This document shows, piece after piece, positions 2,402-42,969 of a DNA stretch of 64,000 nt. The stretch comes from Escherichia coli. Its GTDB lineage: Bacteria; Pseudomonadota; Gammaproteobacteria; Enterobacterales; Enterobacteriaceae. Position 1 is the first letter of the stretch; every line of letters starts with the position of its first letter. The position numbers and the translations under genes were made by a program. Location of the stretch: assembly GCF_044324785.1 (NCBI RefSeq), contig NZ_CP172127.1; one strand, written 5' to 3'. The notes under the pieces were generated by a model. It saw nothing but the letters and a program-made list of their open reading frames with translations. It was not told the origin of the DNA and ran no database searches.

Positions 2402-2574
2402 AAAGTTCTTTTGTGTTGCATTGCTGGCGTAAATGTCAGCAATGCAGCATTTCCTCACGATTCTCCTTTGACGATCGCACTTTTTGCTCGTTATGATGGC
2501 GTCGCTAGCCTCAGTAAATCCTTACTCCGGCGGTGCGCAACCTGTGCGCGTGAACCACTATCTGAATGCTCATC

Positions 2575-22789: not shown

Positions 22790-22900
22790 ATATTCATCCC
22801 TGAAATGTATTAATGAAATAAACGATATTTTACGCGCAATAAATGTTTGGCGCATTAGTTGTTTGAGCGAAAAATATCTGGAAAGCAGATCACAGTAAAT

Positions 22901-22981
22901 AAAAAAACCTGCTGGTGAGGCAGGTTCTTTTATTTACTACAGTGACGCTAACTTGCTGATTGTGCAACATTTCGTACCAAC
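22901..22981 (-). ncRNA. orzO: OrzO-like antitoxin sRNA, copy 1 (~81 nt, boundaries inferred)
   Basis: Minus-strand TATAAT (22993-22988) 17 bp from palindromic TTGCAA (23011-23016); intrinsic terminator on minus strand (stem cctgc/gcagg 22908-22924 followed by U7 at 22907-22901); 5' 18 nt (22964-22981) complementary to zor 5'UTR 23132-23149 with one G-U. Confidence 0.5.
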
Positions 22982-23010
22982 GAATAAATTATAACCATAT
23001 CCACACTCCA

Positions 23011-23038
23011 TTGCAATTCAGTGAATGAGATTTATAAT
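23011..23038 (+). promoter_or_regulatory. Sigma70-type promoter of toxin mRNA, copy 1 (TTGCAA-16-TATAAT); the palindromic -35 is shared with the divergent sRNA promoter
   Basis: TTGCAA 23011-23016, TATAAT 23033-23038; predicted TSS ~23045 giving ~175-nt 5'UTR. Confidence 0.55.
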
Positions 23039-23219
23039 CCTGCCCGTTGGGAGGTTGTGCCGGATCGGACCAATTTTAAGTCCTGGCTACCGGACGGGTG
23101 GTGCCGCAGGCGGTGCCCTGATCCGGAGAGCAACGTTTCGTACCAACATACGTAAACCAGTATCGACAGGCAGTGTAAGGGTAAGGTGCTGGTGTTGCGC
23201 TCCTTAATAAGGAGAGCGG

Positions 23220-23309
23220 ATGGACACGCTGACACAAAAGTTAACCGTGCTCATTGCTATACTGGAGCTATTAGTGGCTCTGTTACGGTTGATTGATTTG
23301 TTGAAGTAA
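23220..23309 (+). CDS. zorO: ZorO-like type I toxin, 29-aa hydrophobic peptide (copy 1)
   Basis: MDTLTQKLTVLIAILELLVALLRLIDLLK; AAGGAGA SD 7 nt upstream; TisB-like amphipathic helix; below ORF-track cutoff; which copy is zorO vs zorP not resolved. Confidence 0.7.
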   Translation: MDTLTQKLTVLIAILELLVALLRLIDLLK

Positions 23310-23330
23310 CGGGCAAATTGAAACGCATCT

Positions 23331-23354
23331 AAGGGGGAAAACCGCTTCCCCCTT
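23331..23354 (+). terminator. Hairpin terminator after toxin ORF copy 1
   Basis: aagggggaa-aaccgc-ttccccctt perfect 9-bp stem. Confidence 0.5.
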
Positions 23355-23508
23355 TAATAAAATGATTACTGTTTTTATTAATTCATCATATAACTCATTT
23401 TTATTTATAAATTCATCGATTTTATATTCAACGTACCATTTGACCGGGATGTGAATATTTATGGTGGGCTATTGGCAAAAAATATCTGGAAAGTAGATCG
23501 CAGAAAAT

Positions 23509-23589
23509 AAAAAAACCTGCTGGTGAGGCAGGTTCTTTTATTTACTACTTTGATGTTAAGTTACTGATAGTGCAACATGGCATCTCAAC
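23509..23589 (-). ncRNA. OrzP/OrzO-like antitoxin sRNA, copy 2 (boundaries inferred)
   Basis: Same architecture shifted by 608 bp; 5' pairing region differs from copy 1 at several positions and matches its own cis toxin UTR better. Confidence 0.45.
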
Positions 23590-23618
23590 GAACGAATTAT
23601 AACCACCTCTGGACAGTG

Positions 23619-23646
23619 TTGCAATTAAGATAATGAGATTTATAAT
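23619..23646 (+). promoter_or_regulatory. Sigma70-type promoter of toxin mRNA, copy 2 (TTGCAA-16-TATAAT)
   Basis: TTGCAA 23619-23624, TATAAT 23641-23646. Confidence 0.5.
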
Positions 23647-23827
23647 CCTGACTGTTGGGAAGTTGCGCCGGATCGAACCCATTTCAAGTCCTGGCTACCG
23701 GACGGGTGGTGCCGCAGGTAGTGCTCTGATCCGGAGTGCAACATGGCGACTCAACAAACGTAAACCAGTGTCGACAGGCAGTGTAAGGGTAAGGTGCTGG
23801 TGTTGCGCTCCTTAATAAGGAGAGCGG

Positions 23828-23917
23828 ATGGACACGCTGACACAAAAGTTAACCGTGCTCATTGCTGTACTGGAGCTATTAGTGGCTCTGTTACGGTTGA
23901 TTGATTTGTTGAAGTAA
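23828..23917 (+). CDS. ZorO/ZorP-like type I toxin, 29-aa peptide (copy 2)
   Basis: MDTLTQKLTVLIAVLELLVALLRLIDLLK (I14V relative to copy 1); same SD. Confidence 0.7.
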   Translation: MDTLTQKLTVLIAVLELLVALLRLIDLLK

Positions 23918-23936
23918 CGGGCAAATTGAAACGCAT

Positions 23937-24344
23937 CTAAGGGGGAATACCGTTTCCCCCTTTAATAAAGCTATACTCGTCATACTTCAAGTTGCATGTG
24001 CTGCGACTTGAATTATCTAGAGTATATAATTCTATTTGTTGGTTGAATATATTCTGTAGTTCACAATTAAAAATTACTATTACAGGTTCAGGTGATTCGC
24101 CTCGTAATTTTTGCTCATCAATAAACTCATCTCTTATATAAATCAACGCATCATTTATTAGCGGGTCGACATCTTCTCGATCACGTTGATGAAATGTTGG
24201 ACGTAGCCGGAATCGCTCCAGCCGGTAGACGGAGCCTGTAAATAATTCAGAGCGTTTATGGATCTCAAGCCTGAAGGAAAACGGCTCTTCAGGTACAGGG
24301 GCCTCATAGTCGTAAATAGTGACCAGCTCTTTTTGCACGATCAT
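23937..24344 (-). CDS. yehK: Small protein of unknown function
   Basis: 135-aa ORF (MIVQKELVTIYDYEAPVPEEPFSF...) 60 nt downstream of yehI; C-terminal codons lie in the terminator hairpin. Confidence 0.6.
   Translation of the reverse strand: MIVQKELVTIYDYEAPVPEEPFSFRLEIHKRSELFTGSVYRLERFRLRPTFHQRDREDVDPLINDALIYIRDEFIDEQKLRGESPEPVIVIFNCELQNIFNQQIELYTLDNSSRSTCNLKYDEYSFIKGGNGIPP
23939..23962. terminator. Hairpin after toxin copy 2, abutting the yehK stop codon (convergent)
   Basis: aagggggaa-taccgt-ttccccctt; yehK stop at 23937-23939 on the opposite strand. Confidence 0.5.
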
Positions 24345-42747: not shown

Positions 42748-42844
42748 TTTATTAACGCGATTGTAAAACTGCGGTTTTTACTCGTTTACAACGCGTGCGC
42801 TGGACATTACCATCCTCCTCTGCGATTTATCATCGCAACCAAAC

Positions 42845-42969
42845 GACTCGGGGTGCCCTTCTGCGTGAAGGCTGAGAAATACCCGTATCACCTGATCTGG
42901 ATAATGCCAGCGTAGGGAAGTCACGGACCACCAGGTCATTGCTTCTTCACGTTATGGCAGGAGCAAACT
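42845..42969 (+). promoter_or_regulatory. TPP (THI-box) riboswitch in thiM leader
   Basis: ggggtgcccttctgcgtgaaggctgagaaatacccgtatcacctgatctggataatgccagcgtagggaagtc matches the classic thiM aptamer including CUGAGA. Confidence 0.9.

Follow-up and report, generated by a model that had tools for sequence, protein, structure and literature searches.

A 64,000-nucleotide stretch of Escherichia coli DNA (contig NZ_CP172127.1 of assembly GCF_044324785.1; hereafter the window) carries, between yehL and a homologue of yehK, two tandem cassettes which we identify with great confidence as a zor-orz type I toxin-antitoxin locus in two copies, at the place where this locus is usually found. The system is already known and the window holds one of its common configurations, distinguished only by which two of the three known specificity types are present; the family was discovered in 2010, dissected between 2014 and 2022, and surveyed in 2024 in more than 2,000 genomes, in work reporting a third specificity type and variation in copy number. 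An initial annotation of the window had described tandem ZorO/OrzO-like cassettes at this point, and this was borne out by the matches to the Rfam OrzO-P family (88.8 and 91.7 bits), by the identity of one of the peptides to ZORO_ECO57 and by the agreement with published landmarks. All of the sequence features that it had listed are present, where it had placed them or a few bases off.

Organisation of the locus

Each cassette contains a toxin open reading frame (ORF), zor, and a divergently transcribed small RNA gene, orz. The main elements are as follows.

22901-22981, minus strand: orz of cassette 1, 81 nt, O-type; 5' end GUUGGUACGAAAUGUUGC, V1 (+9..+11) = GAA; Rfam RF02083
23220-23309, plus strand: zor toxin ORF of cassette 1, 29 codons, encoding MDTLTQKLTVLIAILELLVALLRLIDLLK, which is ZorO with V14I
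23362-23478, no strand: inter-cassette spacer, AT-rich (27% GC), conserved in all aligned two-copy strains
23509-23589, minus strand: orz of cassette 2, 81 nt, third specificity type; 5' end GUUGAGAUGCCAUGUUGC, V1 = GCC; Rfam RF02083
23828-23917, plus strand: zor toxin ORF of cassette 2, 29 codons, encoding MDTLTQKLTVLIAVLELLVALLRLIDLLK, identical to ZorO of O157:H7

The units at 22871-23361 and 23479-23969 are direct repeats offset by 608 bp, and their gapped alignment has 440 identical positions out of 491 (89.6%), which is far beyond chance and confirms the two 491-bp units at 608-bp spacing of the initial annotation. Identity is unevenly spread along the unit: the first 67 bp, with the orz 3' half and terminator, are 95.5% identical, the central 206 bp (22938-23143 against 23546-23751) 79.1%, and the last 218 bp, with the distal untranslated region, ORF and terminator, 97.7%.

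A 1.8-kb region around the locus matches E. coli N3 at 100% identity and the yehL-yehK intergenic locus of O157:H7 at 92%. RefSeq annotation of both genomes gives yehL and the yehK homologue as the flanking genes, in agreement with the location first proposed. Fozo et al. (2010) placed the z3289/z3290 locus of EDL933 between yehI and yehL.

Toxin genes and peptides

A 29-codon ORF, as initially reported, is present in each unit, and each ATG is preceded at 5 nt by the strong Shine-Dalgarno sequence AAGGAG (23209-23214 and 23817-23822). The peptide of cassette 2 is identical to UniProt ZorO and an exact match to the cluster named 'Small toxic protein ZorO, ZORO_ECO57', which is found on at least 1000 contigs; this and the 92% identity of the locus support the proposed relationship to the zor-orz sequences of O157:H7. 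The exact V14I variant encoded by cassette 1 was found on just one other contig in a collection of about 15 billion proteins. It arises at codon 14 (23259-23261, GTA to ATA) and is a conservative change within the hydrophobic core. The charged residues D2, K7, E16, R23, D26 and K29, all six of which were studied in PMC9860968, are kept in the window peptides, whose grand average of hydropathicity (GRAVY) is 1.4.

The peptides had been called TisB-like. This is appropriate for their size, their hydrophobicity and the architecture of the gene and its regulation; it does not extend to sequence homology, as BLASTP of ZorO against TisB gave no alignment with E <= 100.

A scan of both peptides against NCBIfam gave no match. 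In the annotation of the Prokaryotic Genome Annotation Pipeline (PGAP) and RefSeq, both the zor peptides and the orz small RNAs are unannotated in 13 of the 13 E. coli loci fetched. RefSeq is blank at the zor-orz locus because NCBIfam has no ZorO model, although Rfam has the OrzO-P family and UniProt has ZorO and ZorP entries. A type I toxin-antitoxin locus left blank by RefSeq can thus be recognised from sequence alone.

Orz small RNAs

The OrzO-P model (RF02083; Rfam release 15, gathering score 60) matches over its full length at 22974-22901 with 88.8 bits and at 23582-23509 with 91.7 bits. The +1 of each Orz was set by the published register, in which V1 occupies +9..+11, and the first 20 nt of the cassette-1 Orz are identical to those of OrzO of O157:H7. 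The RNAs end at the following terminators.

22901-22926, minus strand: intrinsic terminator of cassette-1 orz, hairpin 22926-22906 then U7 (22907-22901), from the terminator scan, the Rfam structure and the fold
23534-23514 with U7 at 23515-23509, minus strand: terminator of cassette-2 orz, from the terminator scan

The hairpin is AACCTGC..GCAGGTT in both cassettes (22906-22926 and 23514-23534). The divergent minus-strand unit ending in a hairpin and U7, noted in the initial annotation, was therefore found twice; each unit has a predicted RNA of 81 nt, which is within the published size of about 80-85 nt (Fozo et al. 2010). The Rfam model for ohsC scored 33.6 bits at the locus against a threshold of 50, and this and the other sub-threshold matches (STnc370 and the Thr and Trp leaders) all lie on the Orz terminator hairpin and were therefore rejected as terminator-driven.

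An A7 run flanks the Orz hairpin (22901-22935 and 23509-23543) on one side and a T-rich run flanks it on the other; the hairpin therefore looks able to terminate transcription in both directions, for example read-through from an upstream zor cassette.

Promoters, leader and translation signals

The signals upstream of and around the zor genes were located as follows.

22988-22993, minus strand: -10 TATAAT of cassette-1 orz, from the promoter scan; equals the published conserved -10 (PMC11264685)
23011-23016, no strand: shared -35 TTGCAA of cassette 1, palindromic, used by orz (minus) and zor (plus) with spacers of 17 and 16 nt
23033-23038, plus strand: -10 TATAAT of cassette-1 zor, from the promoter scan
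23046-23219, plus strand: 5' untranslated region (5'UTR) of cassette-1 zor, 174 nt, start set by homology; the published delta-28 processing would give a 5' end at 23074
23118-23147, plus strand: EAP ('exposed after processing') of cassette 1, +73..+102, coordinates transferred from PMC5397157
23209-23214, plus strand: ribosome-binding site (RBS) AAGGAG of cassette 1, held in the local hairpin CUCCUUAAUAAGGAG
23331-23354, plus strand: terminator hairpin of cassette-1 zor, AAGGGGGAAAACCGCTTCCCCCTT, palindromic arm and short T tract
23596-23646, no strand: divergent promoter block of cassette 2, with the orz -10 at 23601-23596 (minus), the shared -35 TTGCAA at 23619-23624 and the zor -10 at 23641-23646 (plus)
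23654-23827, plus strand: 5'UTR of cassette-2 zor, 174 nt, from the cassette-1 landmarks offset by +608
23726-23755, plus strand: EAP of cassette 2, by the +608 offset
23817-23822, plus strand: RBS AAGGAG of cassette 2, 5 nt before the ATG
23939-23962, plus strand: terminator hairpin of cassette-2 zor, AAGGGGGAATACCGTTTCCCCCTT, palindromic arm, read from the sequence

As TTGCAA is its own reverse complement, both divergent promoters of a cassette share the same six bases. The promoter scan returned four promoters where 3.3 were expected, so the count alone is not significant; the calls carry weight because they lie at identical homologous positions and because their hexamers are published, with -35 TTGCAA and -10 TATAAT given for both zor and orz (PMC11264685, Table 3).

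The initial estimate of a 5'UTR of about 175 nt agrees with the 174 nt measured from the inferred starts 23046 and 23654. Position 23046 is seven bases past the -10 and puts AAGGAG at exactly +164..+169; the published zorO leader has 174 nt, the RBS at +164..+169, the EAP at +73..+102 and the OrzO pairing at the EAP's 3' end (Wen et al. 2017; PMC5397157). A standby-like motif is found within the EAP of each cassette (GGAGAG at 23125-23130 and GGAGTG at 23733-23738), and a conserved GGAG(A/T)G motif in the EAP was reported in 2024 (PMC11264685).

In ViennaRNA folds of both cassettes, in full-length and delta-28 forms, the RBS was held in the hairpin CUCCUUAAUAAGGAG in four folds out of four with an unpaired probability of 0.06-0.16; for cassette 1 the value was 0.06 in both forms alike. 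Published structure probing likewise shows the RBS to be sequestered (PMC5397157). The unpaired probability of the Orz target of cassette 1 rises from 0.36 to 0.50 after removal of the 28 nt, although ViennaRNA is a weak method for a 312-nt RNA. The cassette-1 zor terminator was missed by the terminator scan because its T tract is short.

Specificity types, pairing and covariation

The three bases that discriminate between the Orz RNAs, V1, are GAA in OrzO and ACG in OrzP (Wen et al. 2014), and mutational work has reported that V1 sets specificity and that its first base is critical. ZorP is further marked by T3S (PMC11264685). By its V1 and by the match to its target, cassette 1 is O-type. 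The V1 of cassette 2 is neither that of O nor that of P, and neither OrzP V1 ACG nor the Ser3 of ZorP occurs in either window cassette. Cassette 2 is probably of the zorQ/orzQ type named in 2024; the published criterion for that type is a BLASTN bit score of more than 650 to the reference, with A20S as a common peptide variant (PMC11264685).

23128-23147, plus strand: Orz target of cassette 1, 73-92 nt upstream of the ATG; 18-nt core 23130-23147 = +85..+102
23736-23755, plus strand: Orz target of cassette 2, 73-92 nt upstream of the ATG

These positions agree with the published complementarity 72-92 nt upstream of the ATG (Fozo et al. 2010). The target of cassette 1 is complementary to Orz +1..+18 at 18/18 positions, counting one G-U, and that of cassette 2 to its cognate Orz at 19/20, where Orz +7 is mismatched and one of the pairs is G-U. 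Pairing was then compared among the 16 full cassettes present in ten of 12 aligned strains, the other two being K-12-type strains with orz only. Cognate Orz and zor paired at 19/20 positions in every one of the 16, with longest runs of 13-18, whereas non-cognate pairs reached 15-17/20, or 18/20 in the case of one variant Orz, and their longest runs were 7-9. Pairing of 15-17/20 in runs of at most 9 is below the minimum for repression, which experiments are reported to place at 15 contiguous or 17 discontinuous pairs (PMC11264685). RNAduplex energies were -33, -38 and -39 kcal/mol for cognate duplexes, against -23 to -30 for cross-pairs.

Across the four sequence types, standard pairs occupied 95% of cells as against 26-40% when the register was slid, compensatory double changes were found at five of the 20 pairs (+5, +6, +9, +10 and +11), and the observed covariation score was reached by none of 500 shuffles. 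This agrees with the mutational work on V1 specificity, and the locus offers a clear case from nature of orthogonal RNA 'addresses' kept by compensatory change.

Orz +7 (22975 and 23583, facing 23136 and 23744) is mismatched in three of the four types, namely P-type, the third type and a variant of the third, and paired in O-type; the positions adjoining it co-vary with compensatory changes. The single cassette of strain FDAARGOS_1267 has a fourth variant of the Orz 5' end, GUUGGGGCGCCAUGUUGC, with a third-type target, pairing at 19/20 including G-U pairs. Diversification of the specificity region is still going on.

Distribution and mosaic structure

At least one full cassette is present in about 3,390 of 5,426 complete E. 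coli genomes, so the restriction to enterohaemorrhagic E. coli (EHEC) implied initially does not hold. At a threshold of at least 95% identity, the third-type module was found in 857 of these genomes, the O-type module in 1,254 and the tandem of O followed by the third type in at most about 363. In the published survey 42% of genomes had two copies, 25% had one, and about 30%, MG1655 among them, had orz only (PMC11264685).

The locus had also been described as absent from K-12 and as an insertion. K-12-type strains have indeed lost zor, but an orphan orzP remains in them, along with both promoters and a stretch of about 30 nt from the zor leader, after which the sequence jumps to the right end of an enterobacterial repetitive intergenic consensus (ERIC) element. 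As these remains are retained, the K-12 state is a deletion, and the polarity implied by an insertion in the window is wrong. The view of this locus as an EHEC insertion is thus corrected to that of a widespread locus of which K-12 carries a deleted form.

O157:H7 has a P-type cassette on the yehL side and an O-type one on the yehK side, whereas in the window the yehL-side cassette is O-type and the yehK-side cassette is of the third type. The arrangements seen among the 12 strains are P+O, P+Q-like, O+Q-like and single P, O or Q-like. When the 16 cassettes are aligned, the central module (22938-23143) sorts by type and the flanks sort by slot or lineage; cassette 1 of the window joins an O-type centre to yehL-side flanks, a slot-1-like ORF and a slot-1-like terminator. 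In these 12 strains the pattern suggests that the module is exchanged as a unit, and in such an exchange seed and target would stay together. Because of the mosaic flanks, module exchange is favoured over deletion from the ends. A three-copy P-O-Q array in strain EC9, apparent from three BLAST places, would have explained the slot shift by simple deletion; it was rejected, as the yehL-yehK gap of about 1.15 kb fits two copies.

It may be, and we give it even chances, that the central ~205 bp of each cassette (the Orz 5' half, the shared promoter block and the zor leader through the pairing site) are an indivisible 'address module' which recombines between the two slots, with the conserved mismatch at Orz +7 as a selected tuning feature. 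If true, both would be refinements of a known system; neither the address module nor the +7 tuning is stated in the available passages of the zor-orz papers.

Proposed mechanism

In each cassette, back-to-back sigma-70 promoters would share one palindromic -35 hexamer. The rightward promoter is predicted to give the zor mRNA, with its 174-nt leader and a 29-codon ORF for a hydrophobic inner-membrane peptide, and the leftward promoter the 81-nt Orz RNA. Peptide made in excess would insert in the inner membrane and cause depolarisation, ATP depletion and a stop in growth. The full-length mRNA is expected to be translationally inert until it is processed, being poorly translated because the Shine-Dalgarno sequence is locked in a hairpin. 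Loss of the first 28 nt would open the EAP (+73..+102), which is thought to serve ribosomes as a standby site. With its first 18-20 nt, Orz would pair with the EAP's 3' end, blocking ribosome loading and triggering RNase III cleavage, and as a result little or no toxin would be made. Hfq would not be needed for this repression. As the seeds differ (V1 GAA and GCC), each Orz is expected to silence only its own toxin mRNA.

The anatomy and family membership of the cassettes, their pairing potential and covariation and the predicted RBS sequestration are results of the present analysis. Transcription, processing, toxicity and repression would follow by analogy with the O157:H7 zorO-orzO experiments, in which toxicity on overproduction and rescue by cognate Orz, dependent on RNase III and independent of Hfq, were shown for the EDL933 pair (PMC3919570, PMC5397157, PMC9860968). 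The orthogonality of the third type is likewise an expectation drawn from the published pairing thresholds.

Several points weigh against this interpretation. The start sites, processing and RNA sizes given here for this strain are transferred from EDL933. In cassette 2 the unpaired probability of the Orz target falls after delta-28 processing from 0.38 to 0.24 (ViennaRNA on a 312-nt RNA, weak evidence in either direction), so no opening of the EAP is predicted and the standby step is without in-silico support for the third type. With its +7 mismatch and longest run of 13, the cassette-2 duplex falls under only the 'discontinuous' form of the published pairing minimum. The covariation test covered only four distinct sequence types, a small sample. 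The ZorQ-typical A20S is absent from cassette 2, which encodes Ala20; because of this, the zorQ/orzQ name is only probable. Finally, the literature has not settled on a physiological role for the system, the published proposals being carbon source and aminoglycoside tolerance.

Alternative explanations

The alternative that survives best, though we think it unlikely, is that Orz also or instead regulates other mRNAs in trans, the locus being kept for this or for aminoglycoside tolerance and not as a classical toxin-antitoxin system. MG1655 has no zor, yet conserves and expresses an orphan orzP (PMC11264685), and the non-toxic ZorO R23L still improves growth in kanamycin (PMC9860968). Nothing in the window bears on this, however; the Orz 5' end co-varies with the zor leader by compensatory changes, which shows that the toxin mRNA is a selected target, and the available passages of the zor-orz literature report no other Orz target.

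That the antitoxins cross-protect, either Orz silencing both toxins so that the duplication is simple redundancy, is less probable still. The Orz 5' ends of the window do share +1..+4 and +12..+20, and the cross-duplexes still reach -23 to -25 kcal/mol. The cross-pairs nevertheless have only 15-16/20 positions with longest runs of 7-9, to be set against the minimum, determined by experiment, of 15 contiguous or 17 discontinuous pairs (PMC11264685); for OrzP, which has 15 complementary nucleotides, failure to repress zorO is reported, and the variable positions include V1, of which the first base is critical.

We consider it very improbable that the cassettes are decaying remnants that lack an active toxin, comparable to the orz-only loci found in K-12-type strains. 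Loss of zor from about 30% of E. coli genomes (PMC11264685), the rare V14I in cassette 1 and the lack of any RefSeq annotation at the locus could be taken in this sense. In both cassettes, nevertheless, the promoters, RBS, 29-codon ORFs and terminators are intact and cognate pairing is kept, V14I is conservative and in the hydrophobic core with all six functionally tested charged residues kept, and the central module of cassette 2 recurs with 100% identity in other strains and with at least 95% in 857 genomes. The blank annotation is explained by the missing NCBIfam model.

Lastly, the identity implied by the initial annotation, the EHEC duo zorO-orzO / zorP-orzP with zorP by yehL and zorO by yehK, is almost certainly wrong: the locus does agree with that of O157:H7 in position, spacing and copy number and is 92% identical to it overall, but the V1 triplets (GAA and GCC) refute it, neither cassette having ACG or T3S, and the yehL-side slot is O-type while the yehK-side slot holds a third module that is only 79% identical to the O-type one.

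Neighbouring elements and the rest of the window

A repeat of about 60 bp at 23970-24029, directly after the cassette-2 zor terminator, is an internally deleted ERIC element, also known as an intergenic repeat unit (IRU). At the same spot the element is full-length in ST131 and FDAARGOS_1267, one of these with an extra insert; K-12-type strains have its right end only and several strains have none. A sub-threshold Rfam match to isrH at 23972-24028 is probably this ERIC remnant.

The yehK homologue (23937-24344, minus strand) encodes 135 aa, as against the usual 105 aa, and overlaps the cassette-2 zor terminator. The usual yehK stop codon TAA, which in O157 and K-12 lies inside the ERIC right end, is TCA here, and the ORF therefore reads through the ERIC remnant. 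In strain N3 the gene is labelled 'hypothetical protein' in RefSeq.

An Rfam scan of the whole window also gave two matches above the gathering score: the Peptidase-S11 RNA motif at 2490-2570 (plus strand, 73.1 bits) and a thiamine pyrophosphate (TPP) riboswitch at 42839-42935 (plus strand, 71.2 bits).

Comparison with known systems

The closest relative of cassette 1 is zorO-orzO of EDL933 (Fozo 2010; Wen 2014, 2017). The first 20 nt of Orz and the 20-nt target are both identical, and the promoters, the 174-nt leader, the positions of RBS and EAP and the terminators are the same. The toxins are distributed otherwise, as ZorO is identical to the peptide of cassette 2 and differs from that of cassette 1 by V14I. 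The location differs too: the O-type module is yehK-side in O157:H7 and yehL-side in the window, where its flanks resemble those of the O157 zorP cassette.

The window locus belongs to the same family as zorP-orzP of EDL933 and the orphan orzPmg of MG1655, with the same architecture and chromosomal site. The zorP-orzP cassette has flanks that resemble those of cassette 1, but its P-type module (ACG, T3S) is not in the window. Cassette 2 resembles zorQ-orzQ (mSystems 2024, PMC11264685) in that it is a third type, common and different from both O and P; the typical ZorQ is reported with A20S, whereas cassette 2 encodes an unmodified ZorO.

The TisB system is similar in design. In both, the antitoxin RNA is divergent and not antisense, the pairing is short and lies a long way upstream of an RBS that is sequestered, 5' processing activates the mRNA, and a standby site has been proposed. 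They differ in that there is no detectable similarity between the proteins and in that repression by zor-orz needs RNase III and not Hfq. The tandem arrangement of several specificities is particular to zor-orz.

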